Positions 9,720 through 61,346 of a stretch of 64,000 bases of DNA are shown here, piece by piece. The stretch is from contig NC_087245.1 of assembly GCF_037042905.1 (NCBI RefSeq), positions 10,666,001 through 10,730,000 of the forward strand. The letters are read 5' to 3'. The notes below the pieces were generated by a model. That model searched no databases. It saw only the letters and a list, made by a program, of their open reading frames with translations, and had not been told where the DNA came from. Every line of letters starts with the position of its first letter. Within the stretch, counting starts at the first letter, position 1. The position numbers were made by a program, and so were the translations under genes. The stretch comes from Lytechinus pictus (taxonomy: Eukaryota).

Positions 9720-12700
9720 TGATTGATTTTATTCGTCAAGAATATCAAAGGAGATTACAATGAAATTGAAGAATACCTTGACAGGATAGCCCATGAAAGC
9801 CGAAAGGCTTATTTCCAATGGGGTCCTATAGTTAGTATAAAACATTAACACATTGTAACAAAAAGTATAAACTACGACAAGTACTGGAATATGGTTAAAA
9901 AAAATAATAAAATACATATATACATATCCATCAGTCAAATAATTTGCAAACATCTGAAGCAAACAACAATCTTCCTAATATATGAAACAAGATTATATTT
10001 TAACTTACCCTACATTATCTACAATACTAGAACCAAACTGTACAAAATGTGTGATTTTACTGGTAATACTGCTCTCGAGTAGCTTCCAGTTTTAGGTGCT
10101 TCTTTAATGCACTCTGAAATTGAGAAAATATTTTAACTGCTTTTACTTGATTAGGAAGAGCATTCCAAGATTGGATGCCATTAAAATAAAAAGTGTTCCC
10201 TATATGTCCTTCACGTTTTGGTAATACAAAATTAGAATTAGTATTTCGAGTATCGTACCTATGGATATTTGATACACGGGTGAAATTATTTGCTATATGA
10301 TGATCTAATGTATCCGAATAGAATATTTTATGCACGTGCATGGTGTAATACTAATTGTTGTGATCTGTGATCTGCATGAAGTAATCCTGCCTTTTCAAGT
10401 TCATTACATCCGACATGTGCTCTTGGTCCTAAAACATTTATGTATCTCACAATTTTATTTTGAATTATTCTTAGCTTTTTCTTATCCGTAACACCCAGAC
10501 TACCGTACCAAGCCGCAGTAGCATAGTCGAATATACATTGTATTAAAGCAAAGCATAAAATACGTCTAGACTTCATATTCAAACAGGTTTGATATCTATA
10601 CAAAAATTTTAAGCGTAAATTTGCCTTTTTGACGATTGAGTCTACCAAACCCGTCCATGATAGGTTACTTGTTAAATTAATTCCCAAATATTTCACTGAA
10701 TCTTTTCTGTCAATTACCTGATTATTATATGAAACCTTGAAATCGTGTGTATATCTTAACTTTCGTTTCGAACAAAATAAAATGCTTTCTGTTTTCCCAA
10801 CGTGTAAACTAAGCTTATTGTCAGACATCCATTCAATGCAATTTGCCAAGTTTTTTATCAATTATCTTGGGATTTGTATCTGAATATAGCAAGACACTAT
10901 CATCAGCATATAAAATTAATTTAGATTCGTTAATACAAGTACACATATCATTGATGTAAGACATAAAAAGAATGGGGCCTAAAATGCTTCCTTGAGGGAC
11001 TCCGCATTTAATAGGCAGTGAATCAGAAAGAACCGTCTACATGGTAACTACTTGATGACGGTTAGATAAATATGATCTAGACCATGTCACACATGCAGAG
11101 TCTAAACCCATCACTTCTAATTTCTTTAAAAGTACGTTATGATTTACAGTATCAAAGGCTTTTTGTAAGTCTAGGAGAACCATTCCAACCATGCGCCTAT
11201 GTGAAATTTCGTTCCTGATAAAATCTGTTAAATGTATTAAACAAGTTTCAGTGGAATATCCGTTACGAAAGCCGGACTGAAATTTATATATTAGCTTGGT
11301 TTCTTGAAAGTATTTCTCCACTTGAGCATGAACAGATTTTTCCAAGACACTACACTTAATACACTTATAGGCCTATAATTACTAACGTCAATTTTATCTT
11401 TCTTTTTATGTAGCGGGGTAACTTTTTGCAAATTTCATATCATCGGGAAAGGTAGAAGACATAAGAGATAAATTAATAACATAATTCAAAGGTTTGTACA
11501 AATTTCTTGCCCCATCTTTTAAAAATCTTGCAGATATCATATCTAGACCAGTACTTTTTGATATTTTCAACCTATTTAGTTTATCTAAAACAAATTTTTC
11601 TGGAACAGGGGAAAAATGAAAACTACCTTTTGAAATACCCTTTTCTTCATAAAACTTTTGAAATTGGTGACTTTCTGCATGAAATTTGTTTGTATTTAGT
11701 GGTAATTTACAAACTAGCTTGTCGGCCACAGTCGTAAAATAACGATTAAACTCATTTGCAATTTTAGCCTTATCATGACTTAATTCACCTTGCACATTAA
11801 TAACCGTTTTTTGATCAGATTTCCCTTTACTTTTTAGACCTAAACCTTTCAAATTCTTCCACAATTTTCTAGAGTCATGTTTGTTTTCTTCGATTTGTTC
11901 TTGAAAGTATTCGTTTTTGGCACTTCTTACCTTCCTTTGAACTAAATTCCTTAAAACTTTATATTTTCTTTCATGGTCTAAATTGCCAATGTTCCTATTC
12001 ATACTTTTGTAAGCTACATTTCTCTTTTTAATTAAAACAATAATTTCATGGTTCATCCATTTTTCAGTTGATTGCTTAATTCTTACCTCTTTCAGAGGTG
12101 CGCTCATATTTATTACTGATAAGAATATAGATTTAAAAATTTCCCAAGCCATATTTACATCGTTACATTCAGTTACCTTGGACCAGTCTGATCGGGATAA
12201 CTTTAAGTTGAAATTATCTACATTATAACCTTTTAATCTCCTGATGGATACAGTTCTATGGTGCCAAAATACGGGCCTAACAATCTTTCTTGAACAATAA
12301 ATTAATAAATGATCACTTATACCTAGGTCAATAACATCACTTTGTCTATTATGCTCTACTTTACTACATAATATGTGATCTATCAGGGAGGAAGATGTCT
12401 GAGTTGTACGTGTGGGTAGCTTTACAGGTTGGCTTAAACCACTTAGATTAAGTATATTATCATATTTCTGGGATAAAGGAGACTTTTTCGAAAGGCAAAT
12501 ATTCATGTCCCCTAAGACTATAATCTCAACATCTTTTAAATTTTTTTCTAAAGTGTCAGAGAGTGATTCAATGAAATTATCATCTATAGAGGGTCTGTAA
12601 AGAGCACCCAGTGTAATGGGCTTTGCCCGAGGCAATAGAATATCGATCCACAATGATTCAATATTTCTTGAAGTCAAGTCTTCTCTTATATTAAATGCAA

Positions 12701-12790
12701 TGTCGTTTCTTATGTAGAGACAAACACCACCACCTAGCCTACATTCACGATCGTTACGTAATATACAGTATCCAGCTATACATACCTCTT
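9720..12790 (-). mobile_element. 5'-truncated, frameshifted CR1/L2-group LINE (APE endonuclease plus reverse transcriptase)
   Basis: Endonuclease motifs RNDR..GGGVCLYI, GDMNI, SLIDHI and SDH. RT motifs QSGFR, LDLQKAFDTVNH, GVPQGSILGP (about 10975-11004), YADD (10899-10910) and KYLGI. 3' UTR ends in aataaa followed by (atca)n near 9720. Several frameshifts. Confidence 0.93.
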
Positions 12791-12899
12791 GCTAACCACC
12801 GACCTTTCCATTGGTTGGTCGTATTTTCAGTAGACATTTTATTTTTGTTAATTTTTTTTGTTCTGAAATGAAATGACTAAAATAGGATAAAATGAATAA

Positions 12900-13420
12900 A
12901 TTGATTTCAATATTGCAACCAGTGAGTGTGTTTACACATGTTACAAATAAATTGTTCATGTCAAAAACTGGGGAGAATGATTGGTTATATTGCACGGCTG
13001 AAGCATTTTGTAAATTTGTCAGGATTGAAGTTCTATAGCTCAATAATGTTACCTCATTTTGATTATGGTGACATTATCTACCAATCTTCAAACAAATCTC
13101 TGCTTGACCAACTTCAAACAAATCAAAATAAAGCTGGAAGAATACTCTTGAAAATTGAACCCTATTCACACACTTCTACCTCTCAAATTCATTCTATTCT
13201 GGGTTGGGACACTATTCAAAAGAGACAGCATACTCACTTGATATTATTCATGTATAAGACTAGTAACAACATGACAACTGAATATATAAAAAAGGTGTTT
13301 CATACAAAATCTACTCAATACCCTCTTAGAAATGAAAATAATATATATTTTCCCAGAACCAATAGTTGTAAAAGATATTTCCCTTGCAGAGCTGCCTCTA
13401 AATTTAACATAATCCCTTTT
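12900..13420 (+). mobile_element. CR1/L2-group LINE ORF2 C-terminal fragment
   Basis: The ORF reads FYSSIMLPHFDYGDIIY...LQTNQNKAGRIL...LGWDTIQKR, typical post-RT LINE sequence. Confidence 0.85.
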
Positions 13421-14756
13421 TACAAACGTAATGTTTGGTTTGGTTTCGTTTTATTTACCGTATAAAAAAATCACAATAAAATACATTGCACAAGATATGA
13501 GATTAAATATAAATATATAAAAATGCACGTAAAAATATACGGATGGATCACTCTATTCAGAGCCATTGATTCCTAGATTATTTTAAGAGTACCCTTTTGA
13601 AATACATCTATGCCAATTGAAATTAAATCACTGATTTGTACGGGGGGAGGGTGTTGTGGTGTGGGTTTTAGAATTTTTTAAAAATATCTTTTTTATCATG
13701 TTTGATGGTCAACTTCCTATTCATTATGGTAATCATAGCCATTATTCTAGTAAACTGGCTCCATGGAAGGCCAGCAGCAATATGAAATTATAGCAGGTGT
13801 AATATTTGAGCAAGAAAAGTAGTTTTGTAATCCAGTTAGCAGGATTCAATACAAGATGTTTGACATGTGTATCCTTATTCTTCGGTTCCTCAAGAAAATG
13901 TTAAGCTGTTGATCCTCTGGTGTCTTATATTCGCATTTGCAATCCATTACATTTTCTTATCAATCAGGTTAAATAAACCACCATTAACCAAAAGTATTCG
14001 AAAATGTGAAAATGTCGTTCAAGCGAATAACACTCATGTCATTGGCGCAAAGAATTATACCATGACATTGCCACGTAAAAAGAACAAAGGACATCGGTGC
14101 AGATATTGGTATAAAGTGTATAATTAAACCACACTTTTGTGAAAAATAGGTCTATATTTTGTCATGAGCAGAAGATACTGCGATAACCTGGAGCCTACTT
14201 CACTTACGGAATGTTTACGTGATACACAGTGAATATAATATAGATATGTTACACTTGCCATGCTTGTTATGCATCTAGGTCACTTTAATTTAATAGCTTC
14301 CAGTAAAAAATTTGAATCAATTTTATCAAGCGCTATTCGCGATACACGTATAATAGACCTTTCACGAAACGGAGGCAAATCAATGAAAATAATCATTCCC
14401 TAAATAGGAATCAAACCATTGGTGCATGCTGTTTGTTCTATGGATTGCAGAAACGTGTTCATTAAATTCACGTTAAGCGTCTAATTATGTAAAATTGCGA
14501 GATTGGCTCGCGAAACTGTACCCCTTTCCCAGCAGCCATTCTATAAATGAAAGCCAATAAGCCATTTTAAAGGCAAATAATAAAACATGCATTTATAGGC
14601 ATCAAGCTGTCGATTATCTTAGGTATATAATAGGGGGGGGGGGGGTGAAAGGTATAAATGGATTTATGAACCATGACGTCATACATGGGATGCTATGACG
14701 GTATTTATTCATTGGTCGTGTACATTTTGTTCGCCCTTCCAATTCTTGGGGGATGA

Positions 14757-14940
<184 letters not shown>

Positions 14941-16460
14941 AAGAAAAGGGAATGAGAAGAAGATGACGAAGAAGAAAATTAATAAGAACATTAAAGGTAG
15001 GTCGTATGTGAGTGATATAAAGGGATTTCCCCGTATGGTTGTGCCACTGCTGATTCTCTCTTCAGCACGGAGATTGTTCTTGACAACGCTTTATAATTAA
15101 ATCAATACTGGTTTTATTGTGTTTCCAAGCTAAATGTACTATCGATAGAGTAGGAAGATGAGAGAGATAACTAAATACAAATTGAATGATATATTTCGAT
15201 TTTTTTATAACAAAACATGACATTGTTTTTAAAAGAATGATGTCGTAAAAGTGTGTGGAGGAGAAGGGGTGGGGTGTTAGTGGGCGATAGTGAGGCAAAA
15301 TTGATTTGTTAGCAAAGCGGCTGCGCATGTGCACTTCATCACTCTTGATTCTCATCATTCCCTTCGCAAATACATTCAATGTGTAAATTGTGAAAGGCAC
15401 ACACGGTTACATTGACTTGAATGAACAGCGCTGCTCCGACTTTCAAATTTGCGCCACACAATTTCACGAAAAGGTTTCACAGGTTCTTAGAGTCCAGGTA
15501 AAGATCTTGTTTTGTATTATAATTAATTTTTTGACATTTAATTGATAATTGGTGTGGTTTACTAGCAATTTTATTTGGTTATGTGGTAGGTGCTTTGGTC
15601 TCAGCGTTATATTTTTTATTTAGTATTTTGGTTAGGGTGCCAATTTAAGAAGATCATTACAAGAAAGCATCTAGTCCTCTCCTGAATCGCACACTCATCA
15701 TTTCTAGAGTTGAAAGACTTCGGGAATGACATAGTTGGATCCAGGGGACCGAATCAGCCGCAGACCCCTATTTGCAGCGCCTCCCAAAAATGGGAGGAAA
15801 GGAGAAAAATGAAGGAAAAGGGGAAACGAAAGGAGATTAGAAAAAGAGGGAAAAGAAAAAAAACAGGAATAAGAAAAGTGAACAAAAATAAAAGAAACAG
15901 AGGCATTGGAAAAAAAATATCTTCAGTTTACCAAATAGAAAATAAAATTCTACTCGTGTTTGCATTCCCTATTTAATGATACACATATCCGGTTCAAGAG
16001 GATTCAGTGGTGCTTAAAATAACTTAAGTCAATATACAACAAATATTTTTTTTTTAGCGTTTATTAATAATTTTGTTTAGTAAGATATGCATCATCATAG
16101 TCGTGCTCATGATTACATAAAGCACTTAGAAGTCTTAGGTTTTTATCTTTAAAATTTTCAGCTCTAACATTTGTATCTGTTTCATGATTTTGTCAAACAT
16201 CGCTTTAAATGTTCCTTTTCGGGTCGTTATATATCAAAGTCAGCTCTTGCTCGCACATTTTGCTCGGTGAGAAACGAATTATTTTAATGATTGCAAAAAC
16301 TGCTTAAAATCTCCCGTTTCAGATTTAAATCAACATTTTTAAACTTGCGCTTCTCGCTCGCATTATATGATGAGTGAAACATCATATTCTTTAATTGCTA
16401 CCAAAAAATAATTAAAATGTCCCCCTTCTCAGATCAGTATAATAGTGAACAAATGAAAAT

Positions 16461-16770
16461 GAGAGAATATAGATGCGTAGCTTCACTCAAGGTCCCTCAG
16501 ATCTGTCTTCCATTCTGAATCAAAGGTTGAAAATGCTTCCGCCGGGAATCGAACCCTGGTCCCTGGCTCTAAACGCCAATACCTTAACCACTAGACCACG
16601 GTGGCGGGCCAGCAGGAAGGCGAGACTGAGTTCAATTAACTGGCAGGCAAACTTTCAACCTTTTTATTGATTCTTTGTCTTTTTGGTGCAGATGAGTTAA
16701 TGAACAATGAGTAGCCGCGTGCCGAAGTTGGATCTCAGCTAATACAAGCATTCATCAGAAAGGGGACAAT
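16461..16770 (-). mobile_element. tRNA-carrying, (TA)n-adjacent repeat, divergent subtype
   Basis: Colinear homology with 25173-25500: gagagaa..gcgtagctt..caaggt..cag, then the tRNA, then ctttgtc..gaacaatga..agccgc..tgcc..ag.tggatc. Followed by (TA)n. Confidence 0.75.
16534..16605 (-). tRNA. tRNA-like gene or pseudogene with anticodon TTA (ochre-reading)
   Basis: GCCACCG TG GTCT AGTGGTTA AGGT A TTGGC GTTTAGA GCCAG GGAC CAGGG TTCGATT CCCGG CGGAAGC A, then TTTT. Two acceptor-stem mismatches and one T-stem mismatch. Confidence 0.6.
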
Positions 16771-16775
16771 ATATG

Positions 16776-16820
<45 letters not shown>

Positions 16821-16856: not shown

Positions 16857-17160
16857 ATCAGAAATGCGAAACAAATTCACAAGTAATGCAATTTTTGCAA
16901 TGCCAACAAGTTCTTTTATTCACTTTCCAAATTTTCGGTAGACATCTACCTTCTTTAGGGAAGATTCGTGAATTGTGACAAGTTTAAATGACAGTTCATT
17001 TAAACTTGACAGTTCATTTAAACTGTCATTTAAACTTGTCACAATTCACGAATCTTCCCCGAAGAAGGTAGATGTCTACCAAAAATTTGGAAATTAAATA
17101 AAATAACTTGTTGGCATTGCAAAAATTGCATTACTCGTGAATTTCTTTCGCATTTCTGAT
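16857..17160. mobile_element. Inverted pair of Penelope-like 3' ends with degenerate hammerhead ribozymes
   Basis: ~140-bp inverted arms between TA runs. HHR-like motifs at 16925-16962 (-) and 17055-17092 (+), with consensus ttcc CTGAAGA a ggtag atgt ctacc GAAA ATTT ggaa. Confidence 0.75.
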
Positions 17161-21435: not shown

Positions 21436-22836
21436 GTTACTGGGGGCAGGCGCGGATCCAGGGGGTGAATGGGCCCCAGGTAAAAAAAAGGTGGAAGAAA
21501 AAAGAAACACACCACGCTATAGGATGAACAACTATTATTTAGACACAAATAGTGATTTATTAGCCTGATTTTGATAACCGTCTGTGCAACGCATTCACCT
21601 TATACCCAGTTTTCTCAAATTTAATCAATTTTGGTGTTGCAATTTATTCTCCTCATGAAATTAAATCTAGTGAGATCAGTCCGTCAAGTAATATGAAACC
21701 AAGCCTCATGCTTTTACAAATTTGACATATAAATTTGAGTCATATCTGCATACCTCTTGTAATTTTTAAAAACAAAAAAAAATTATATCTTTGATTTCTC
21801 CCCCTTTTATGTTTTATTTGTTTTCTTTTCAGAGTTATCCAGTGAATGTAATGAAATATTGGAGATTCTATTATTTGTTTGCATCGTTTCTTTTACTACT
21901 GGGTTTATTTTGTTCTGATATTAGAATAAAAGCCAATGAAATTGGGCAGAGCAATGATCATTAAATATTTAATGATTTTGGAAACCTATAGTTTTGGGTG
22001 TCGTTTGTTTTAAATATTGCAGTGTTTTTGTAGCATTTGTTTATTGCGCTCTCCTCCCTTTTCTCTCTTTCTTACGCGAGGCGTCAGTTATTTTGGACAT
22101 GGAATTATTAGTATTTATGTGTTTGTAATCCATGGAATTGCAACCTTTTTTGTTCTTGATTTGTTTTTGTTAATGCAATTCAAATAAATGGCAAGCGAAA
22201 AATAATTGTATGAAAACAATTAAATTTTCCAATTAAGAGATCTGTGGCCCGTAAGACAATTAGCTTAGCAATGGACGTAGAACATTTTCTACGATTAATT
22301 ACATTGACTACAATATACAATCAATCGTAAAAATTAGAAAGATTAGACAAAATCAATGGTAAACCAAATAGGTTTTGCCAATTTGGTTTAAAAAAATAGA
22401 GACTGAATGAAATGCCCTGCTTGTGCAGTTACAGTTTTTTTTTTTAATGCAATGAATGAGTACAGACAACTGAGCGAATAATCCAAGAACCTACCACAAT
22501 GTGCCGTCAATGTCCTGCACATTTTGGTAAATCTATCCTGGGTATAATCCTGCACATTTTGGTAAATTTACCAAAATGTGCAGATACCGAAATGTGCAAT
22601 TTACCAGAATGTGCCGTAACATGGTCTGATTAATAAAACAGTGTACTCAACCATGGCAACAGGCGTCAATTGAGCGAACTGTGACAAAAGCGCCCATCAG
22701 CATTAGACATTTGTTTTTATTATACGCGGTGAATTAAGCGTAATTGATATATGAAATCTGCATAAACCATGGGTTCAACCGACCGTTTTCAAAACCACCT
22801 TTGTGAATTCGGGCCATAGATTGTAATAGAAAACCG

Positions 22837-23384
22837 GAGCATAACTCTAAAAAAAATAAAGGTGAAGTTACACTTTTCGTCAGTGCCCATGATGTGACAA
22901 AAAGAGAATTCAAAGTCCGTTTCTGAAACAGTCGTGAAAACACGTCTGTTCATGGGCATACGGATTGTGAAGCTCACCTTTCAAAGAAATCCTTGCGCTG
23001 TAGATGGAGATAGCGCAACATAAAAGACGCATCTAAAGATGCAGTGCCATGACTGTAGGGTAAATTGGCGAATCTCCGGCTCTAAAACAGAAAAATCTAA
23101 AACAATTATGTATGTATATATATATTCCTGTTTTGGAGCCGGAGATTCGCCATTGTCATCTTGCAGTCATGGCAACGCGTCTTTAGATGCATCTATTACA
23201 GTGCGCTTCCTCCATCTTCAGCGCATTGATTTCTTTGAAAGGTGAGTTTCACAATCCGTATGCCCATGAACAGACGTGTTTTTCACGTCTGTTTCAGGAA
23301 CGGATTTTGAATTATCTTTTCTTGTCACATCATGGGCACTGACGAAGAGTGTGACTTTACCTTTCATCTTTGAGGGCTATGCTC
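22837..23384. mobile_element. Fold-back MITE (near-complete ~550-bp palindrome)
   Basis: The left arm ggagcataactc...tcagtgcccatgatgtgac...ggcgaatctccggctc is the reverse complement of the right arm, with a short AT-rich spacer at about 23095-23125. Confidence 0.8.
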
Positions 23385-23529
23385 CTTTTAAAATGAACGA
23401 TTTTATTTCTACGGCATTTACTAAACTATGTGTGATCATTATTATTATCATTTTATATATATATATATATATATATAACGATATTACATTTCGCGTGTTG
23501 GACATAGATGAGATAAAAGAAGCAAATAG

Positions 23530-25118
23530 GTAATGCGTTATATTAGTTCCAACAGATGGCTTCCAAAAATGGTGTCTACAACTGTTGTTGCTAATTAAAA
23601 AAAACGACATAGTTTGCTCAATATCCAGAATTATGATTTTTTTTTGTCTATACCATGGTTAAAAGGGTCAGATAATATATATGGGGACAAGTTACAAGGA
23701 AAGTCAGTGGTCTTGTGCAAAAATCTGCGATGGATTAAAAAAAATTGATTTTGAAAGGGCTGCTAATACTTAGAGCGGACATAGCTCATTTCATTTTGGC
23801 CTGGGCGATGTGATTGTGGTGTCTAAACCACTGGTTTCAAGGGTCAATCAGAAAATTAGGGCAAGTTACAAGAGCAGACAGTGGCCTGGTTTGTAAAAAA
23901 AATCTAAGTCGGCTTCCAAAAATTGATTCTAAATTGACTGCTGTTCTGGTTTCAAGGGTAAGAATAATACATTAGGACAAGTTTAAAGGACTGTCAGTTG
24001 TTTGTATGTTAAAAAATCCAAGACGACTTGAAAAAAATGGGGTGTAAAATCACTGTTGTAATTTAAAAGTATACATAGTTTATTAGAAATACACATTGGG
24101 GGTATGATTTTGCTGTAAACACTAGAGTTTGTAGGGTCAAGAAATACATTGGGTTAAGTTGAAAGGACAGTCAGGTGTCAGTTATGTCCCAAAATCCAAA
24201 TTTGCTTCAAAAAATGGGTTCTAAAGTGACTGCTGTTACTTAGAAATGGACATTAGTTCATACAATATCCACCTGTGAGAAATAATCTTGGTGCCTACAC
24301 TTAAATGCATGGGGATACATTATCATATTGTTTCATGAGTTGGTAACAGCATCCATTTTGATGAAATCTTAGAATCCACCATGGATTTTTTTACAAAACT
24401 GAATACTAACCATCCTTGTTACTTGTCTGAATGTATTATATGACGGTCCCTTTATACCACAATTTAGACACCAACATTATTTCTTACAGATAGATATTGT
24501 AGAACTCTGACCATTATTGAGTGATATGAGTCGTTTTAGATGCATTTAAAAAAAACCCTCTTGGATTTTTAGGCAAATTGGACAACTGCATACCAATTCA
24601 CTCAGTCCAAACGTATTGTTTTAACCGTGAAACCATAGTGTGGACACCGCAATCATCTCTCCTTGGTGGATTTTAAATGAACTATGTCCACTTTTAAAGT
24701 AATAGCAGTCATTTTAGACTCCGATTTTTGGAAGCCATCTGGGATTTTCGACATGCTGGACCACTGACTGTCCTTGTAACTAATTTTCAAAATCATATGC
24801 CCTTGACGGATACTTGTCCCAATGTATTATTTGACCATTGAAGCCATGGTCTAGACACAAAAATTATATCTCCCATGTGGATATGATATGAGCTATGTCC
24901 ATTTTAAGTATTAACAACCGTTTAAAACTCAATTTTTTGGAAAACATCTTGGATTTTTGGACACACCAGACCACTGACTGTCCTTGTAACTTGTCCCAAT
25001 GTACTACTTCACCATTAAAACCATCGAATACAAACCAAATTAAAGCCACTTAAGTAATAGATGAATTGTGGATTTTTTTGCCTACGGCAGCCATCTTGAT
25101 TTTCCTGGTACCCTGGAT
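23530..25118. mobile_element. Truncated copy of the Academ-like element with ~176-bp internal tandem repeats
   Basis: Colinear similarity to about 57640-60100, including the internal orientation switch. Both termini are missing. Confidence 0.8.
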
Positions 25119-25134
25119 TGTATATATATAAATG

Positions 25135-25179
<45 letters not shown>

Positions 25180-25254
25180 CAATGGTAGGCGTAGCTTAAT
25201 GCAAGGTTCCCCAGAGCTATCTACCCTTTGGAAGAATTGGTGATGCCGAAAAAA

Positions 25255-25326
25255 TGTCTCTGCCGGGAATCGAACCCGGGCCCCCAGCTTTGAACGACGG
25301 TGCCTTAACCACTAGACCACAGAGAC
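25255..25326 (-). tRNA. 72-nt tRNA-like gene, anticodon TCA (opal-reading, not Sec-type fold), copy 1
   Basis: GTCTCTG TG GTCT AGTGGTTA AGGC A CCGTC GTTCAAA GCTGG GGGC CCGGG TTCGATT CCCGG CAGAGAC A, then TTTTTT. One anticodon-stem mismatch. Confidence 0.75.
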
Positions 25327-25662
25327 GGGTTAGTGGCTAGGGCGACCCCGATCCGATTGACCGTCAGATAGACAGATTTTCGACAATATACCAATTATAA
25401 TTTCCTTTGTCGGGTGAAGGTGGGTTTTGAACAATGACAAGCCGCCATGCCTCAGCTGGATCAAAGGTATTGCTTTGATACAGTACACGTATGGGAGAAA
25501 GTATACAAATGTGTGAAGTTATTAATGTACAACAGCTTTGGCAACTCTTTTATTTAAATATTGTGTGAAAGAAATGGATGAAGAGAACAATGGTAGGCGT
25601 AGCTTAAATCAAGGTTCCCCAGACTTATCTACCCTTTGGAAAAATTGGTGATGCCGAAAAAA

Positions 25663-25734
25663 TGTCTCTGCCGGGAATCGAACCCGGGCCCCCAGCTTTG
25701 AACGCCGGTGCCTTAACCACAAGACCACAGAGAC
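25663..25734 (-). tRNA. 72-nt tRNA-like gene, anticodon TCA, copy 2
   Basis: Same fold with a fully paired anticodon stem CCGGC/GCTGG. A14 is replaced by T. Followed by a T6 terminator. Confidence 0.75.
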
Positions 25735-25903
25735 GGGTTAGTGGCTAGGGCGACCCCGATCTGATTGACCGACAGATTTTTGACACTATACCAATTATAA
25801 TTTCCTTTGTCGGGTGAAGGTGGGTTTTGAACAATGACAAGCCGCCATGCCTTTTAAATAAAAGAGTTGCCAAAGCTGTTGTACATTTATAACTTCACAC
25901 ACA

Positions 25904-25990
<87 letters not shown>

Positions 25991-33151: not shown

Positions 33152-33486
33152 GTAAGTCTAAACAGGGAATTGCCTTAGTAACAATTTAAGTTAGGAAGCT
33201 GGACTTGTAAACACGCACATATGCGTTCATTCTAGATTATAATGGAGTAAAAGCGTTTGTATGGTGTCATATTATGTAGGCCTACCTCTGTTTGGAATGA
33301 CTGTATTGATGGCACAGGCTTCTCCATCACAGTAAATTATGCATGTTAAATCACGTTAATCTATTGTGTTTTAAAAATTTGACGATTTTTAGTCACCATT
33401 ATCTGCTTACACTGTCTACAATCATCATACACCACTGGTTCGTAAATATCCGAGGGGTTCTTTTTGTTTACCTTTCTTCTGTGCAG

Positions 33487-34471
33487 GACCAGGCATATGG
33501 TGCCACCGCCGTAATTCCCCTTGAATATCTAGGTCAGGAATATTTTGTATCAGTTCGAGCTGGACCAAGCCCTGGAGAAGTGGTAATCTCTTCAACCGGT
33601 GAAGCAACTTTGATTTGCCTGACACCCAATGGTCCTTTTACATACAATGGCATCAGTTATTCTGCTCCCTTATCGAGTGTCCAATTTGAGATTCCGGCCT
33701 GGTATCAAATGGTAATCACAAGCTCATCGAACGACTTTACAGGGTCAAGAATACTGGCAAACACGACCGTTTCTGTCGTTAGTGGGTCGGCTTGTGCTGT
33801 CAGTCCAAGGCAAGGAAACGAATCGTGTGACTATGCCATGGAACATCTGATGCCTTACGATAAATGGGGAACCATCTTTAATGTACCGCCATTTATAGAT
33901 GGGGTTTCTACGGGTTTCTATGTCCAGATTACCGCTGGGAGAGACGATACGACTATCAACGTCGATGGTACTGTAATCAGTCTTGATCAAGGACAGACTG
34001 AGAGCCGAGATGTCAACAACATCAACGACATTCTACGGATCACCAGTGATAAGCCCATCCAAGTAGTGCAGGTACTCGATGGAGCCACATCAATGGTTGT
34101 CATTCCACCTGAAGAACAATACACCCTCCAGACTTCTTACTTTCGTTTATCGGGTGCTGCATCCCTCGATTTATATTTTAACCACTTTTTTACAATCGTG
34201 GCTCCGTGCTCGTCCAGTTCAGGGATCACCGTTACTTCTTCAGCTTCTGGTTTCGCTAATTTGGCACCGTCTTCAACAATTAATGGTGGCATGATGTGTG
34301 CCTATTTTCACCAAGGAACCGAATTAGCTACCTATACGGTCTCGCAATACGATCCCGATGGGGCCTTCTTTGTTGTTAATTATGGAAGATACGGCACTGC
34401 AGGATATGCTTATGTGGGTGCTCAAAAGTACGAAACACAAAGATGCACAGACTATCAGACTATAACTTGTA
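33487..34471 (+). CDS. Secreted IgGFc-binding/mucin/PAN protein, coding exon 3 (IgGFc-binding N-terminal domain)
   Basis: Acceptor cttctgtgcag. Motifs VIPLEYLGQEYFV, CDYAMEHLMPYDKWG, ITSDKPIQVVQ, MVVIPPEEQY and GYAYVG are typical of FCGBP N-terminal domains. Donor gtgagt (phase 1). Confidence 0.92.
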
Positions 34472-34616
34472 GTGAGTATAAATATTATTATTGTTATGTA
34501 CTAAATGTATTAAAGAAAGAGCATTCACCCCGACGTTGTGTTGTAAAAATTGTCTTTTACTAACATCACGCGGCACAATATGCTACATCTAACTGGACAA
34601 CTGTTATTCATTTAAG

Positions 34617-37904: not shown

Positions 37905-37990
37905 TCTATATTTTACTTTTGTCAAATAAGTTATCATTATTAAAGAACAGAACCACTTTATTGTATTTTATACCTCTTTTAATAATCCAG

Positions 37991-38241
37991 TTGCTGATTC
38001 AAGAAAGGTTTCAGGCTACTTCTTACGTCGTTTCCCAGACAAGTCTGTTTCATCGAGCAAGCAAATTGAAACTGTTGAAGGTACAACTCAGATCCGATGT
38101 GCACAACATTGCCTAGATAAAATCAACTGCCAGTCATTTAGCTGGGGGACATCGACTCAGCATTGCATACTCGGTGGCTCTATTGATTCACAGTCAGATA
38201 TTGTGCAAGATGATGGGGTTGATATATTTGTTCGCTCATGA
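37991..38241 (+). CDS. Secreted IgGFc-binding/mucin/PAN protein, last coding exon (PAN/Apple domain)
   Basis: Acceptor aatccag (phase 1). Reads (V)ADSRKVSGYFLRRFPDK...TQIRCAQHCLDKINCQSFSWGTSTQHCILGG...DIFVRS*, a CxxxCx5CxSF..CxL PAN pattern. This frame is absent from the ORF track. Confidence 0.85.
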
Positions 38242-44492: not shown

Positions 44493-45489
44493 GAGACCAC
44501 ATTGTGAAAGAACCACTTGACACAGGTTCTATTCTGCTTGTTTCGGGAAAATATAATAAAAATCAACACTCATCCTTTTAATTCTCTTTCCCTGCACTAA
44601 TGTAAATACTACTGGAGTGAAAACATAATGATAATTGAAAATCTGCAATTTGAGTAGCGATGTAACGTAACACACAGAACGTCAAGTTAATAACTTTACT
44701 TACATACCCCAAAATGATTTCCGTCAATTGTTTGAAAGCGAAGGCCATTGAAAGCATCGTGTAAGTTTGTGTAGAGATTTCTTTCGAATCTTATCTTTTT
44801 TAATTATCGTTTAAAAACCAACGCATCGACATCCGATGTACGTGGTTTTGAAGCTACTTAATATGTTCAAACGTTAATAATCATAATGCGGAAAATTCTA
44901 TAGATATATTTTGTTTTTAGTAAGAACTCATATTATGACAATCTTCCATTTTTCTTTTCTAAAAATCAATAAATAATCAATTTTCATGATCGCAGAAGTG
45001 TGTTGACAATTTTCATAGGAAATATAATTAAGGTGATATGGTGCTAAAAAGAGAATTTCATTTAGAAATTATCAACACAAACTATGCGTAGTAAATTAAT
45101 ATTGATGCAGATATTTTAGTTTCATTTATTTGAAGACCTACACATAATAATTACACATTATGTAAGGTTTACCGAGAGTACATTTAGTCTTACGAAATTT
45201 TGATACCGTATTTAGGCTTAAATCATGGCAGCATTCTTGCCACTACTACTCATTATCTTCACAGCTATATTAAGATAGCAGGGGATTAAGAATAAAGTCA
45301 TGATTTTCAAAATGTAACGTTAGTACATGTATAATAGAGAAACTGAGGTGTAGCAACGGGCACACATTATATAAATAAGTGAATGGAATGAATATAAATT
45401 TTTACTTTAGTCTGTTGTAGCATCCGGACCACATGTTCTTATTCATTTAAGGTCTTAGCTTATATATATATATATATATATATATACAG

Positions 45490-45534
<45 letters not shown>

Positions 45535-45535
<1 letters not shown>

Positions 45536-47096
45536 ACAAAATACAAGGTGAATAAAACAACCGTAGAGAGAAAAGTTGATCAAATTTTCGCCCATAGGGC
45601 TTCATCAGGAAATGATGAATTTATTAGTCAAGAGCACCAAGAAACGCAGTGCTCAAAACGCAAGGCGTAAAAAACAACAGGCTAAAAGATAAAACGTGAA
45701 GCGCAACAGTACAAATAAAAAGAGAGAAAGAGAAAGAGAAAAACAGAAAACAGAAAGAAAGGGGAAAAAAGAAAGAAGAACAGAAGAAGAAGAAGAAGAA
45801 AAAGCCGGGGAGACAAAAGGAAGAGAGAAAAGGGAAAAGGAAAACGACTAGAGGAAAAAAGAGAGATGGAGAGAAGGGGGCAGAAATAGAGGACACCTGG
45901 GGAGAAAGAAGTAAAAGAAAAAAAAAGAAGAAAAAGAATTAAAAAAAGAAAAAGAAAGAAAAAGAAAGGGACCAAAGGGTACCTGGCATATCCAAGGCTC
46001 TTTCACATGGGTCACCAAGGATTGCATATATTCAGAGACTCCAACTCTCCCGCTTTCGGCGGGAGATCTCCCGCCGAAAGTCTATTTTCGCAAAATATCC
46101 CGTTCTCCCGCTTGAGATTTAATATCTCCCGCCCAAGCACTTTGTCTCCCGCTTAAGATGTATTTCCTCCCGCTTAAAATGATCTATCACAAAAATGTAT
46201 GGGTTTGTAAATGCTTATCAATTTCATATGGCAAGTGCATGAACAGTGCAGTGATATATAAAAAATCAGTTGTATTAAGCCAAAATAAATGATTTGATTC
46301 ATTGATTGTTATTCACTTAGTGCCATCATAATAATAATAAAATAGCCTAGAATAGCACGAGAGAGCATTTAGAACCCTACAGCTTCTAGAACCCTACAGC
46401 ATCTGTTAGTACCCCGGCCACAAGGCCTGACTTCGCGCTTTGCGTTCTTGGTGTGCGCGAAGCGCACGTCAAGTTGGAGTCTCCAGTTTGCGAGGGGATC
46501 TAGGCGGGAGAATCTCCAGATCAGACGGTGCTTTGGGTTGGAGTCTCTGTATATTGCATCTACTGCTCCAAGTGCAAGGCGATCTACATCGGAGAAACGA
46601 AGAGGAGGCTTGCTGACAGAGTGACGGAACATCTTCGCTCCATCATGATCAAGTCAGCAGGGTTGCCGGTAGCTCACCATTTTACCCAACCGGACCATAA
46701 CATCGGGTACTTCAAGTTGTGCGTTCTTCTGACTGGTTTTCGTTCAGATGGGGCAAGGAAAGAGAAGGAGGAACGCATCATTCACTCTCTCGGCTCTCTC
46801 TAACCTGATGGAATGAATGTGTCTTTCCACTCCTTTCCCGTGTTTTGATTTCTTTCTCCCCCCTCTCTCTTTCTCTCTCTCTCTTTTCTTTTGTACTGTT
46901 ACGCTTCGCGTTTTATCTTTTAGCGCGTTGTTTTTTACGCACTGCGTTTCGTGGTGCTCTTGACTAATAAATTCATCATTTCCTGATGAAGCCCTATGGG
47001 CGAAAATTTGATCAATTTTTCTCTCAACGGTTGTTTTATTCACCTTGTATTTTGCTTTATACTACCACAACCGAAGCAGGACCTTCATTTTTATTG

Positions 47097-47098
<2 letters not shown>
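45535..47098 (+). mobile_element. Neptune-like Penelope element 3' fragment with inverted pseudo-LTR, between (TA)n tracts
   Basis: GIY-YIG with CxxC: GSFTWVTKDCIY|CIYCSKCKAIYIGETKRRLADRVTEH..VAHHF..LGSL*PDGMN. Inverted arms at about 45535-45740 and 46865-47055. HHR core CTGATGA a gccc tat gggc GAAA at 46983 (+) and about 45580-45610 (-). Confidence 0.9.
46033..46549. mobile_element. hAT-like MITE with a 6-bp TSD inside the Penelope GIY-YIG
   Basis: TIRs cagagactccaac / gttggagtctctg, TSD tatatt, subterminal ctcccgc repeats. Removing it restores the host reading frame. Confidence 0.85.
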
Positions 47099-47132
<34 letters not shown>

Positions 47133-56489: not shown

Positions 56490-59400
56490 GCAAACTTACA
56501 TAATAATTTATGAAGTGTGGGTTTAGAACAGGCGGTGTGTTTTTAGACGTCCATAAAGCATTCGACGTTGTATCTCATGAGTAACGGTTAAATAAACTAA
56601 CCTGCTATGGCATAAAAGAAAATGAATATCATTGGTTTAAATCGTATATAACAGGTATAGAATACAACGTGTTTCAATAAATGGTACTTTAAGTGATTCG
56701 TTAATCGTAAAAACAGGAAGCATTTTTTACAATCACAATTTAATATAACTGATTGGATGGACAGAAACGAAATGTATATAAACGTCAACAAGACTAAAGT
56801 CATGATCTTTGGTTCAATTGACAAAATATAAGTTGTAAAATTTATGTATTATGTAAAAAATCTAACACCGGAAAACGTTAATAGCATCAAGTATCTTGGA
56901 GTTACTCTCGACCCAGTTATGAAATGGACAAAACATGTTAACAGTGTGTAACGCAAATTTCATCGGGTCACTGCTTGTATTCGGAGGATTAAGCCCTACT
57001 TAACCCAAAGACGCTATAGACGGGTCAATATACGACCAAAAATAGCCTTACCCGGAACAAATTGCAACAAATGATTTTTCAACGGTATTTTGTACTATTT
57101 GACCTCAGGAATAACATGCTAAAAATCTACCAAAATCCGAACCCGGGAAAGTGGTTATTTTCAAGATGGCGTCCAAGATGGCCGCCATTCACTGAAAATT
57201 GATACAACTGACACATTATCCACTCTAGAATCCTATTTCGGTTCATATTCCATGTTCTGGGGTTACAAAAACTGATTTAGGCTAGAATGAATTATAAGCC
57301 CTCCAGTGTACCAGGCAAATCCAAGATGGCGCCCAAAATGGCTGCCATATAGGCTGAAAATCAACAATTCATCTAAATTTGTTTTTATTCAATGGTTTTA
57401 AGGGTAAAATATTACGTCGAAACAAGTAATAAGGACAGCCAGTGGTCTGGTGTGTCCAAAAATCCAAGATGGCTTCCAAAAATGGAGTTTAAAATGGCTG
57501 TTGATAATTAAAATGGACATAGTTCATTTCATATCCGCCTGGGACATAATGATTTGGTGCGAAGACCATGATTTCAATGGTCAAATAAGACATTGGGACA
57601 AGTTACAAACACAGTCAGTGGTCTAGTATGTTAAAAAATCCAAGATGGCCTCCAAGAATGGAATCGAAAATTGCTGTTGCAACTTCAAAAAATCCGTCAT
57701 AGTTTGCTCAATGTCCAGAAATATGATTTTTGTGTCTTATACCATGGTTAAATGGGTCGAATAATACATTGGGACAAGTTACAAGGAAAGTCAGTGGTCT
57801 GGTATGTGCAAAAATCCTCGATGGATTCTAGAAATTGATTCTGAAATGGCTGCTAATACTTCGGACGTAGCTCATTTCATTTTGGCCTGGGATATGTGAT
57901 TTTGATGTCTAAACCACTGGTTTCAAGGGTCAAATAATATCTTAAGATAAGTTAAAAGGACAGTCAATGGTCTGGTTTGTCCAAAAATCGAATATGGCGT
58001 CCAAAAATTGGTCTTAAAAATATGCTGCTGATACTTAAAGTGGACAAAGCTCATTTTATATTGGCATGAGAGATGCGATTTTGGTGTCTAAACCGCTGGT
58101 TTAAGGGCCAAAATAATACATTAGGACACGTTTTAAGGCCAGTCAGTGGTCTGGTATGACCAAAAATCCAATATGGCTTCCAAAACTTGATTCATAAATG
58201 GCTGTTGATACTTAAAAGTGGCATAGCTCATCTTAAATCCTCCTGTGAGATATGATTTCGGTGTCTAAACTATGGTTTCAAGGGTCAAATTATATATTAG
58301 GACAAGACAATGGCAGTCAGTGGTCTAGTATGTCCAAAATTACAAGATGGCTTCCAAAAATGGAGTAAGAAATGTCTGATGTTACTTATAAAAGGACATA
58401 GTTTGTTTAATATCTGTCTGGGGAATATGAGTTTGGTGTTTAAAGCATGGTTTAAAAGGGTCAAGTAATACACTAGGGTAAGTTACAAGACCAGTCAGTT
58501 GTCTGTATGTTAAAAAATCGAAGATTACTTCAAAAAATGGGGTGTAGATTGACTGTTGCTACCTAAAAGTATGCATAGTTTATTATAAATACACCTTGGA
58601 GGTATGATTTTACTGTCTATACTAGAGTTTACAGGGTCAAGCAATACATTGGGTTAAGTTGAACGGACAGTCAGGTGTCAGGTATGTCCAAAAATCAAAG
58701 ATGGCTTTAAAAATGGGGGTCTTAAATGACTGCTGTTACGTATAAAAAGTGGATGTAGAACATTATAAATACACCTTGGGGATATTATTTTGGTGTCTAC
58801 ACTAGGCTTTCAAGGGTCAAACAATACTTTGGGACTGGTTACCAAGATATGCAGCTATCCATTTTGCCTTAAAATCAAAGTTGGCTTAAAAATGGGTTCT
58901 AAAGCATGTAAAGTGACTACTGCTCCATAAAATATCTACCTGTTAGGAATAATCTTGGTGTCTACACTTAAATGCATGGGGACAAGTTATCATATTGCTT
59001 CATGAGTTAGTAACAGCACCCATTTTGATGAAATTTTAGAATCTATCATGGATTCTTTGACAAAATGGAGTACTAACCATCCTGTTACTTGTCCGAGTGT
59101 ATTATTTGACCCTTCATACCACAATTTGGACACCAACATTATTTCTTGCAGATGAATATTGTAGAACTCTGACCACTATTGAATGATATGAGTCGTTTTA
59201 GATTCCTTTTTTAAAAACCCTCTTGTGTTTTAGGCAAATTGGACAACTGCATATCAATGTAACCAGTCCAAACGTATTATTTTAACCATGAAACCATAGT
59301 GTGGACACCGAAATCATATCTCCTAGGTGGATTTTAAATGAACTATGTCCATTTTTTAAGTAACAACAGTCATTTTAGACTCCGATTTTTGGAAGCTTTC

Positions 59401-61346
59401 TTAGATTTTCGACATACTGGACCACTGACTGTCCTTGTAACTAATTTTCTGCCTTTTGAAACCATGATATAGGCAACAAAATCATATGCCCTTGACGAAT
59501 AAAACATGAATTATGTCCATTTTTAAATACCATCGCGGCTGATTGATACTATTTTTTTAGCCACCGTAGACTTTTGGACATACTTGACCACCAATCGTCC
59601 TTGTAAAAGATCCAAATTTATTATTTGACCCATTTAACCATGGTATAGGCAAAAAAAATCATATTCCAGGATATTGAACAAACTATGTTGGGTTTTTTTT
59701 TTAGTAGCAACAGCATTTTTACTCCATTTTTGGAAGCCATCTTGGATTTTTGAACATACCGGACCACTGACTGTTCTTGTAACTTGTCCCAATGTATTAT
59801 TTGACCATTGAAACCATGGTCTAGACACCAAATCACATCTCTCAAGTGGATGTGATATGAGCAATGTCCAATTTAAGGATTAATAGCCATTTCAAACTCA
59901 TTTTTTGGAAACCATCTTTTATTTTTAGACACACCAGACCCACTGGCTGTCCTTGTAATTTGTTCCGATGTACTACTTCATCATTAAAACAATCGAATGG
60001 AAACCAAATTAAAGCCACTTAAGTAATAGATGAATTGTGGATTTTTTAAACTACGGCAGCCATTTTGGGCGCCATCTTGGATTTTCCTGGTACCCTGGAG
60101 TGCTAATATTCACTCTAACTTGTATAAATAAATTCTTTTACCCATTGGACCATGGAACATGAACCCAAATAGGATTCTAGGGTGGATAGTGAGTGAGTTA
60201 TATCAATTTTTGGTGAATGGTGGCCATCTTGGACGCCATCTTGAAAATAACAATTTTCCCAGATGCGGATTTTGGTAGATTTTTAGTATGTTATTCCTGA
60301 GGTCAAATAGTACAAAATACCGTTGAAAAATCATTTGTTGCAATTTGTTCCGGGTCAAACCATATATTGACCCGTCTACTAATTGATCTGTATTTTGCCA
60401 TGTTTGTCTCTCATCTTGATTATTGTTCCATTATCTAGGGTAACATAACAAAAACGAACATTACGAGACCACAACGTGCCCAGAATCGCTACGCCAGAAT
60501 GACTTTAAATGCCGACCGATATACATCTACTACATGCTCACTGCAGAAGCGTAATTGGCAATCCGTTCTCCAACGAATCAAGGTTATTCACTGTATTGTT
60601 ATATTCAAAATAATCAACAACTTTACCCCAAATTATCTAAAGAAGCTAATATCGAACAAGCAAATTTATCATACGTCTACAAATGCTGCAAAAACCCCTC
60701 TTTTTGTCACAACTCCACGTACTGAATATATGAAACCATAATTTTCTTATCAGGGCACATTCATGTCCTTTCTTGCCTTACATTTCAATCTTTTAAAAGA
60801 CAGTGCAAACAACTTAGCCATACATTTAAAGACCTGTTTAAACAAGTAATTTTTAGAATAGAAACAGCCAACATTTTCGCAGTGGGAGGGGGGGGGGGGT
60901 TGTGCAATTAGAAAAAATGTCTCGTTTTAATTTAATTGTTACTTTATCTGTACTGATAAATTGTAGTATTATTTGATTGTTTGTTTCTCAATTTTTATAC
61001 TTTTTTATTTTCATGCCAGAATCACAATCATTATCGCCTTTTTCATTTTATTCTAATATTCATCTAGTTTGCCATTTTATTGTTACATTTCGATCACTCT
61101 ATGTATCTATTATGTATTGTTAGTTTCATATGTATGCTTTTGAATTTCATTTCTTTTATATTGCTTGTAGTTTTTCTTTTTGATTAATTCTGTAATTATT
61201 CATCACTGTACACTGTATTACGATTGTTATATGTATTTGTATATGTATATGGCTCTCTCAAAAAGCAGTTTTATGTACTGAAGGGACCGCCCTGTCTACA
61301 AAACAGAAATGAATAAATAAAAAAAATTAATAATTAAATAAATAAA
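56490..61346 (+). mobile_element. Decayed CR1/L2-group LINE interrupted by an Academ-like element
   Basis: GGVFLDVHKAFDVVSH at about 56531, KYLGVTLDPVMKWTKHV at about 56889, then IDLYFAMFVSHLDYCSII after the insertion, and an (aaat)n tail at about 61310-61346. Confidence 0.8.
57017..60378. mobile_element. Non-autonomous Academ-like DNA transposon with internal satellite-like repeats
   Basis: TAG...CTA termini (tagacgggtcaatata / tatattgacccgtcta). 3-bp TSD cta at 57014-57016 and 60379-60381. TIRs longer than 300 bp. ~176-bp tandem units in two opposed blocks. Confidence 0.85.

Follow-up and report, generated by a model that had tools for sequence, protein, structure and literature searches.

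The DNA analysed here (the window) is a stretch of 64,000 nt from Lytechinus pictus, animal DNA of 36% GC with many repeats. A host gene is represented by exons with IgGFc-binding and PAN domains at 33310-34563 and 37930-38238 on the plus strand. There is a broken LINE of the APE type, with Pfam matches to endonuclease and reverse transcriptase (RT), at 10331-12791 on the minus strand, and its RT (11.0-12.8 kb) is the nearest to the repeat that is the subject of this analysis. A second LINE-like 3′ fragment is found at 12926-13465 (plus strand). Between 38320 and 41303 lies an array of ~52 copies of a 57-bp unit, ~93% alike; it has a strong GC skew, and either strand contains long open frames. 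Two palindromic MITE-like elements occupy 16857-17160 (91% self-complementary) and 22836-23385 (83%), and a diverged satellite-like repeat of ~177 bp forms direct and inverted blocks at 23554-25120 and 57017-60378. At the edge of one of these satellite-like blocks is inserted a repeat that carries tRNA-like genes. Its parts are as follows.

25135..25174, no strand: (TA)n then (GA)n tract, the 3′ end of the insertion in the tRNA sense (from the sequence)
25175..25582, minus strand: one full 408-bp period, comprising core copy B and the 129-bp spacer; head-to-tail joints going back 401 and 408 in DNA run X1
25175..25452, minus strand: core copy B, about 278 bp, 93.5% identity to copy A
25186..25226, minus strand: conserved island of the trailer, the predicted partner of the leader island in a terminal helix
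25249..25254, minus strand: T6 run of copy B, Pol III terminator-like, directly after the discriminator base
25255..25326, minus strand: tRNA-like gene copy B, TCA anticodon, G32, private G30T mismatch
25327..25362, minus strand: 5′ leader of 36 nt whose sequence is the reverse complement, in degenerate form, of the T and D arms; predicted mask of the cloverleaf in long transcripts
25412..25452, minus strand: conserved island of the leader, predicted to supply the 5′ strand of the terminal helix
25453..25581, minus strand: AT-rich spacer of the monomer, 129 bp, without primer-binding site (PBS) or polypurine tract (PPT)
25582..25852, minus strand: core copy A, 271 bp, 5′-truncated at the leader island (from sequence comparison)
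25657..25662, minus strand: T6 run of copy A, with a T5 further on at 25640-25644
25663..25734, minus strand: tRNA-like gene copy A, TCA anticodon, G32, private A14T in the A box
25853..25901, plus strand: inverted spacer piece of 49 nt at the other insertion end, 98% to the reverse complement of 25510-25558
25908..25985, no strand: (TA)n tract of the other insertion end (from the sequence)

Read in the sense of the tRNA, the order is (TA)n, the inverted 49-nt piece, core A, the 129-bp spacer, core B and (TC)n(TA)n. The tract at 25135..25174 is likely to be the target site with microhomology, the terminal TCTC of the repeat running into the tract. The 408-bp monomer is non-coding, and is found both with tandem joints and as a dispersed, diverged copy (copy C, below). 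The tRNA lies ~180 nt inside the monomer, with T6 directly after it. This internal position, the immediate terminator and the tandem period bear out the view taken in the preliminary description that the module is internal and terminated, and is not the head of a SINE. Outside the terminator T4 runs are absent from the sense strand, a weak result (P = 0.043). No RT or transposase Pfam match falls at the repeat among 134 stop-to-stop frames of at least 70 aa, a set that leaves out the tandem array at 38.2-41.4 kb. The RT or transposase ORF with in-frame TGA that had been suggested as a partner is not found linked to the copies in the window.

The tRNA-like modules

Two 72-nt cloverleafs had been claimed 408 bp apart on the minus strand, each with a perfect 7-bp acceptor stem, a 5-bp T stem, a GUUCAAA loop, A73 and T6, and all of this is found. 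The two genes, at 25255-25326 and 25663-25734, have a start-to-start spacing of 408 bp, and in a numbered comparison both have 7/7 acceptor and 5/5 T-stem pairs. Each is 72 nt in length with a GTTCAAA anticodon loop, a variable loop of 4 nt, the discriminator A73 and T6 directly 3′. Both copies are called as tRNA by ARAGORN and by Rfam RF00005. The latter provides the covariance-model check that had been proposed, scoring copy B at 51.6 bits (E = 2.8e-9) and copy A at 56.5 bits (E = 1.2e-10). The copies differ at 2/72 positions, A14T in A and G30T in B, so that each does carry one different defect, as described earlier. G30T is private to copy B, since the pairing G30 is present in 99.8% of the depth in run X1.

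Copies A and B have a paired cloverleaf, a promoter and a terminator, with UCA in the middle of a 7-nt loop, and G32 is the atypical feature. Position 32 of tRNA is nearly always a pyrimidine. The oddity of G32 had been remarked upon, and it is kept both in copy C and in a contig of the family with a TCC anticodon. The A and B boxes are the best-kept parts of the repeat. Other registers of the anticodon loop pair poorly. The Glu(TTC) register pairs 0/5 stem positions compared with 5/5 for TCA, which removes the suggestion of a shifted Glu(UUC) loop, and the Leu(CAA) register, with only 2/5, was rejected too.

Nor is this tRNA-Sec, as the preliminary description had already argued. Eukaryotic tRNA-Sec has G73, a long variable arm and an acceptor-T stem of 13 bp (9/4) in a molecule of 90-101 nt in the account given in the sections of PMC5330540 concerned, whereas copies A and B have 72 nt, a 4-nt variable loop, 7+5 pairs and A73. 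The UCA anticodon is the sole likeness.

A third, diverged copy of the monomer lies elsewhere in the window:

16441..16772, minus strand: diverged copy C of the monomer, aligning over about 355/408 monomer positions
16534..16605, minus strand: tRNA-like gene copy C, TTA anticodon, G32, discriminator followed by T4; 44 bits

Copies B and C share 53% identity over the leader, 78% over the tRNA and 60% over the trailer. Copy C keeps 18/21 stem pairs, with three two-sided and three one-sided changes that preserve pairing, and three breaks. The two-sided changes include the acceptor and anticodon stems. At least three two-sided changes in the cloverleaf would be expected by chance with P = 0.014-0.11 depending upon the mutation model, and arise in 21/500 shuffles, although this covariation rests on two independent lineages only. 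As read from the sequences, the pattern is suggestive of selection on the shape after G32 arose. Because copy C and the young family have A36 in common, the two subfamilies may have inherited TCA from their ancestor, with TTA a change private to the decaying copy C.

Copy C starts adjoining (TA)n (16780-16817), at a monomer position of about 25505. It is bounded by a 14-nt imperfect inverted repeat (16420-16433 / 16756-16769) with TG..CA outer ends, perhaps a short inverted end comparable to the one at the main locus, and no target duplication can be seen around the copy. The MITE-like element at 16857-17160 is just upstream.

The family and its insertions

How abundant is this repeat? The public data comprise assembled contigs for all of 24 runs, 20 of which contain part of the stretch, and four were aligned on one 408-bp period. 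In the DNA run X1 there are 8288 contigs on that period, covering 30/30 bins, with a summed depth of 70,000-984,000; long contigs from single loci have 30-50. Such a sum over contigs does not count copies, yet it means that the family is present in very high copy. The original claim that the tRNA is carried by a mobile repeat is supported. The joints and ends seen in X1 are varied. Among 15 joints listed (of 49), nine change strand, four skip and two go back 401 or 408, and the junctions of inverted arms vary between loci. Among the six loose ends listed for X1 (18 of 520 overall), three, at 25502-25525 in the spacer (74 contigs), enter TA/TG repeats; this is the zone in which other copies join such microsatellites. 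Loose ends that enter microsatellite are seen in both X1 and X11. The point at which copy C meets (TA)n, ~180 nt from its tRNA, falls within the same zone, and the ends of insertions therefore lie away from the tRNA boundaries.

Among the best 40 of 91 variants, for which the cut-off appears to lie near 12% in at least one run, 20 sites vary at 12-63% in X1, and all are within 25327-25590. The tRNA and trailer (151 nt) hold 0/20 of these, with P = 0.02 for the tRNA alone and 9e-5 for the 151 nt; these values are loose in that the sites are linked. None of the same best 40 variants affects the anticodon. A T5 follows the T6 in copy A and in most of the family. TCA dominates the young family in X1; copy C has TTA, and in one X11 contig the loop has TCC with G32.

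Other runs have their own spectra. In X10 the mix of subfamilies is unlike that of X1 (25401 T>A at 97% against 14%, 25346 C>G at 93% against 52%), the depth over the spacer is far lower, and there is a loose end at 25328 that resembles what we take to be a template-switch adaptor. One subfamily could be preferentially transcribed, though that X10 and X11 are RNA is a guess. A dip in X10 at 25327-25337 was considered as a cut site and rejected, as clipping at an indel can explain it. X11, from organism B, has 79 contigs covering 30/30 bins and another subfamily spectrum (25417 A>T at 77%), and its source may be a related species or mixed material. X19 has three contigs at a depth of 3-4, and same-sample runs of organisms C and D contain none of the search words of the repeat. 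Exact matches to the trailer island, or to the tRNA body with any anticodon, are absent from metagenome contigs and from viral contigs, a result without weight because the host is not to be expected in such collections.

Does the family also yield a working opal suppressor? The short Pol III transcript would then be matured, charged (most plausibly with glycine) and would read UGA, either to the benefit of the host or to that of an element that has UGA in frame. Glycine tRNAs altered to UCA can suppress UGA, and TCA is one change from the TCC of the X11 contig. Promoter, cloverleaf, A73 and terminator are intact, and the short form of copy A is predicted to fold as a cloverleaf. The dominance of TCA in the young family, the lack of listed subfamily sites in tRNA and trailer, and the A36 shared with copy C all point the same way. 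Against these stand G32 in the anticodon loop, relatives that read TTA and TCC, the likely cost of very many active suppressor genes, and the lack of any ORF linked to the copies. In addition, the recoding of UGA in Naiads, in the sections of PMC8557442 concerned, requires SECIS elements together with a Sec-specific tRNA. We regard a working suppressor as very improbable, and the headline proposal of the preliminary description, a UGA suppressor for elements with in-frame UGA, is unsupported given that G32 is kept with TTA and TCC and no ORF is linked.

The anatomy of the insertion provides a further clue to the way in which the repeat moves. Some 20 kb from the tRNA repeat, and separate from it, there is a fragment of a Penelope-like element (PLE):

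45461..47129, plus strand: PLE fragment with GIY-YIG at 46504-46800, a hammerhead-like core, a truncated copy in inverted orientation, and a (TA)n tract on either side

The GIY-YIG match, which is C-terminal, is to PF01541 (E = 7e-6). The hammerhead-like core near 46983 is present also in the inverted truncated 5′ copy of the PLE. The fragment has a ~45-nt tail at one end and an unrelated insert near 45980-46500. Its layout matches that of the tRNA repeat. Moreover, the window has seven (TA)8+ tracts, of which three adjoin the tRNA repeat and three adjoin the PLE fragment, with ~1% of the window being no further than 30 nt from a tract of this kind. Both of the repeat loci in the window (2/2) adjoin (TA)n. 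The parts of PMC8557442 that deal with PLE insertions describe partial tandems, an end that is inverted and truncated, a one-sided extension and (TA)n as the target. Of the Penelope connection that had been put forward, therefore, the insertion anatomy fits, but the link to Naiad recoding of UGA fails on its need for SECIS and tRNA-Sec.

The monomer and copy C have no similarity to the PLE (45.2-47.4 kb) above that of shuffles, of which 3 to 53 of 100 score as high, and the neighbouring PLE is thus not shown to be the partner, as it shares no sequence with the repeat beyond chance. With the PLE as positive control, no type I hammerhead core is found on either strand of copies A and B, and there is no strict match in C. 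Rfam likewise gives no ribozyme in the repeat, a weak result given that the hammerhead-like core in the PLE escaped Rfam as well.

A short internal part flanked by two direct repeats that both carry a tRNA-like sequence might instead suggest a TRIM of the Helenus type, in which two tRNA-bearing LTRs flank a 129-bp internal part, or an ordinary dimer of a SINE; one Helenus family does form tandem arrays in the sections concerned of PMC10886601. However, TG..CA ends, PBS and PPT are lacking in either orientation, and the spacer belongs both to the repeating monomer and to copy C. The tRNA has an internal position with T6 after it, whereas SINEs are defined as non-tandem with a 5′ head in the relevant part of PMC3531059. 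Both ends of the main locus are in microsatellite, where a 4-bp target duplication is unreadable. We give an origin of this kind hardly any credence.

The predicted rod and the masking of the cloverleaf

Free folding of the monomer RNA gives the same rod topology in 3/3 copies. The leader and trailer islands at the ends of the core are predicted to pair in an interrupted terminal helix of ~29 bp, with four two-sided changes. Over the whole 81-pair rod there are seven two-sided changes, a number reached by 2/500 shuffles and compared with one or two in slid controls; the structure was derived from the same three sequences as were tested, which favours the rod. The folding z-scores are stronger for the sense than for the antisense strand, at -5.2 against -3.4 for copy B and -2.8 against -0.9 for copy C. 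The island duplex alone is weak (22, 83 and 104 of 1000 shuffles), and its stability is about equal on the two strands.

This last property would be expected too if the repeat were an element that moves as DNA (foldback, MITE or Helentron-like) or a satellite propagated through recombination, with the islands acting as sub-terminal inverted repeats on single-stranded DNA. The paired islands at the ends of the core and the inverted 49-nt arms either side of copy A might be read in the same way. Yet the inverted arm comes from the interior of the monomer and has junctions that differ between loci, the insertion ends vary and lie in microsatellites, and the layout is the same as that of the PLE in the window. 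Such a DNA-level origin is in our view very unlikely.

Within the predicted rod the D and T arms are taken up in pairing with the 36-nt leader, so that the anticodon hairpin alone would be left standing. With a leader of 8 nt the calculated pairing probabilities of the acceptor and T stems are 0.99 and 0.86 for copy A, and 1.0 and 0.79 for copy B. With the 36-nt leader they fall to ~0 in both. Copy C gives no cloverleaf fold even when the leader is removed. Summed over the eight family variants that fall in the leader, ddG is near 0 (P = 0.013), where the mean cost expected is 1.5 kcal/mol for transitions and 2.6 kcal/mol for transversions. The pairing of leader with tRNA is matched by shuffled leaders in 6/2000 cases for copy B, 233/2000 for A and 123/2000 for C, and is thus clear in B only. 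The two private changes of copy A fall within the leader-tRNA helices. Shuffled leaders often break the acceptor stem too (83, 134 and 299 of 300). The complementarity of the leader could have come from an inverted duplication of the tRNA arms, with no selection.

The tRNA in this same mobile repeat may instead be a mere relic or a Pol III promoter, with the rod and the masking helices arising as by-products of GC content and of inverted duplications in the past. The weakness of the masking statistics in copies A and C is consistent with that, as is the preferential keeping of the A and B boxes. There are precedents in Helenus, which retains tRNA-derived promoters with odd anticodons, including false suppressor calls, in the sections concerned of PMC10886601, and in the high-scoring tRNA-derived repeats of other animals (PMC8450103). 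This does not readily account for the two-sided changes seen in the terminal helix as well as in the acceptor and anticodon stems, nor for the sense-strand bias of folding in B and C, and the T6 after the module would halt Pol III before it had copied the element. We consider the relic or promoter an alternative to be taken seriously, but an unlikely one.

Our preferred reading, which we think probable, is that both cloverleafs are modules within a tandem repeat of 408 bp, non-coding and of high copy number, that has inserted in (TA)n, that this repeat is likely to be copied by the RT and endonuclease of a PLE, and that its RNA is predicted to mask the cloverleaf. The module would then probably function in transcription or RNA handling, and not in the decoding of UGA. 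The long RNA would fold into the rod, with the islands at the core ends forming the terminal helix of ~29 bp and the 36-nt leader hiding the D and T arms, while a short transcript of the Pol III type would fold instead as a cloverleaf. By this masking a long or multimeric RNA could evade RNase P and RNase Z and stay whole as a template for RT. A masked, uncut long RNA agrees with insertion ends that lie away from the tRNA. The PLE endonuclease would nick (TA)n and the RT would prime at TA, CA or TC microhomologies, and priming of this kind could yield the partial tandems and the inverted end. Pol III is an unlikely source of the unit-length RNA unless it reads through, because of the T6 and of the additional T5 in copy A and most of the family. 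It is likely that the tRNA module is kept as a Pol III unit or as a processing handle, and the fallback of the preliminary description, a tRNA mimic or processing signal, is plausible. The TCA anticodon was perhaps a passenger of the founder of the young family.

A bolder version of this idea would make the repeat a retrozyme-like element in which the ribozyme has been replaced by a switchable tRNA. A leaderless copy of the tRNA would be cut by RNase P and RNase Z, and a leader-bearing one masked, so that read-through of a tandem would be trimmed to one monomer with one protected tRNA. This would be copied into (TA)n by the RT of a hammerhead-less PLE, and the short Pol III product may then be a real UCA tRNA. 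At present we find this scheme rather unlikely.

Relation to known elements

The closest systems in their working are the non-LTR retrozymes of animals, which in the accounts consulted (parts of PMC7229834 and of 10.64898/2026.07.22.740005) have a short non-coding monomer, occur as monomers and tandems, make a structured RNA and are proposed to be mobilized by PLEs. The repeat cannot be counted as a retrozyme because it is without the type I hammerhead, having in its place a full tRNA-like Pol III unit. The EN+ PLEs, notably the hammerhead-less Naiads and the non-autonomous Chlamys elements, as described in the sections of PMC8557442 concerned, likewise have the partial tandem, the inverted truncated end, the extension at one end and (TA)n, and are without a hammerhead. 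By contrast, the repeat has no RT or GIY-YIG ORF and shares no end with the PLE in the window, and its extension is about 73 nt, compared to 30-40 nt in EN+ PLEs in that source. A tRNA module is not described for PLEs in those sections, and the word tRNA occurs once in the main text, as tRNA-Sec.

Helenus/TRIMp3 (sections concerned of PMC10886601) also has an internal tRNA-derived sequence in direct repeats, inflating tRNA counts and giving false suppressors. The repeat differs from it in being without LTR termini, PBS, PPT or a visible 4-bp duplication, and in having a complete cloverleaf; and in those sections there is no echinoderm family of Helenus. With tRNA-derived SINEs the repeat has in common the A and B boxes, high copy number and simple-repeat ends, but its tRNA is ~180 nt inside with a terminator after it, and the arrangements are tandem and inverted. 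No description of such an element was found among titles and the openings of abstracts, a search that lay outside subscription journals, Repbase, Dfam and supplements; the supplements of PMC10886601 and PMC8557442 hold consensus sequences and could include the family.

The repeat family will inflate the counts of tRNA-Sec and suppressors in annotations of the Lytechinus pictus genome. If the preferred reading is true, it would represent a class of PLE-dependent parasites with a complete Pol III tRNA unit in place of the hammerhead. It would also provide a small, testable substrate for how PLE-type RNAs without a hammerhead are defined, and how they are reverse-transcribed into tandem and inverted insertions. 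The leader that masks the tRNA from processing nucleases would then be a new RNA switch in a mobile element.
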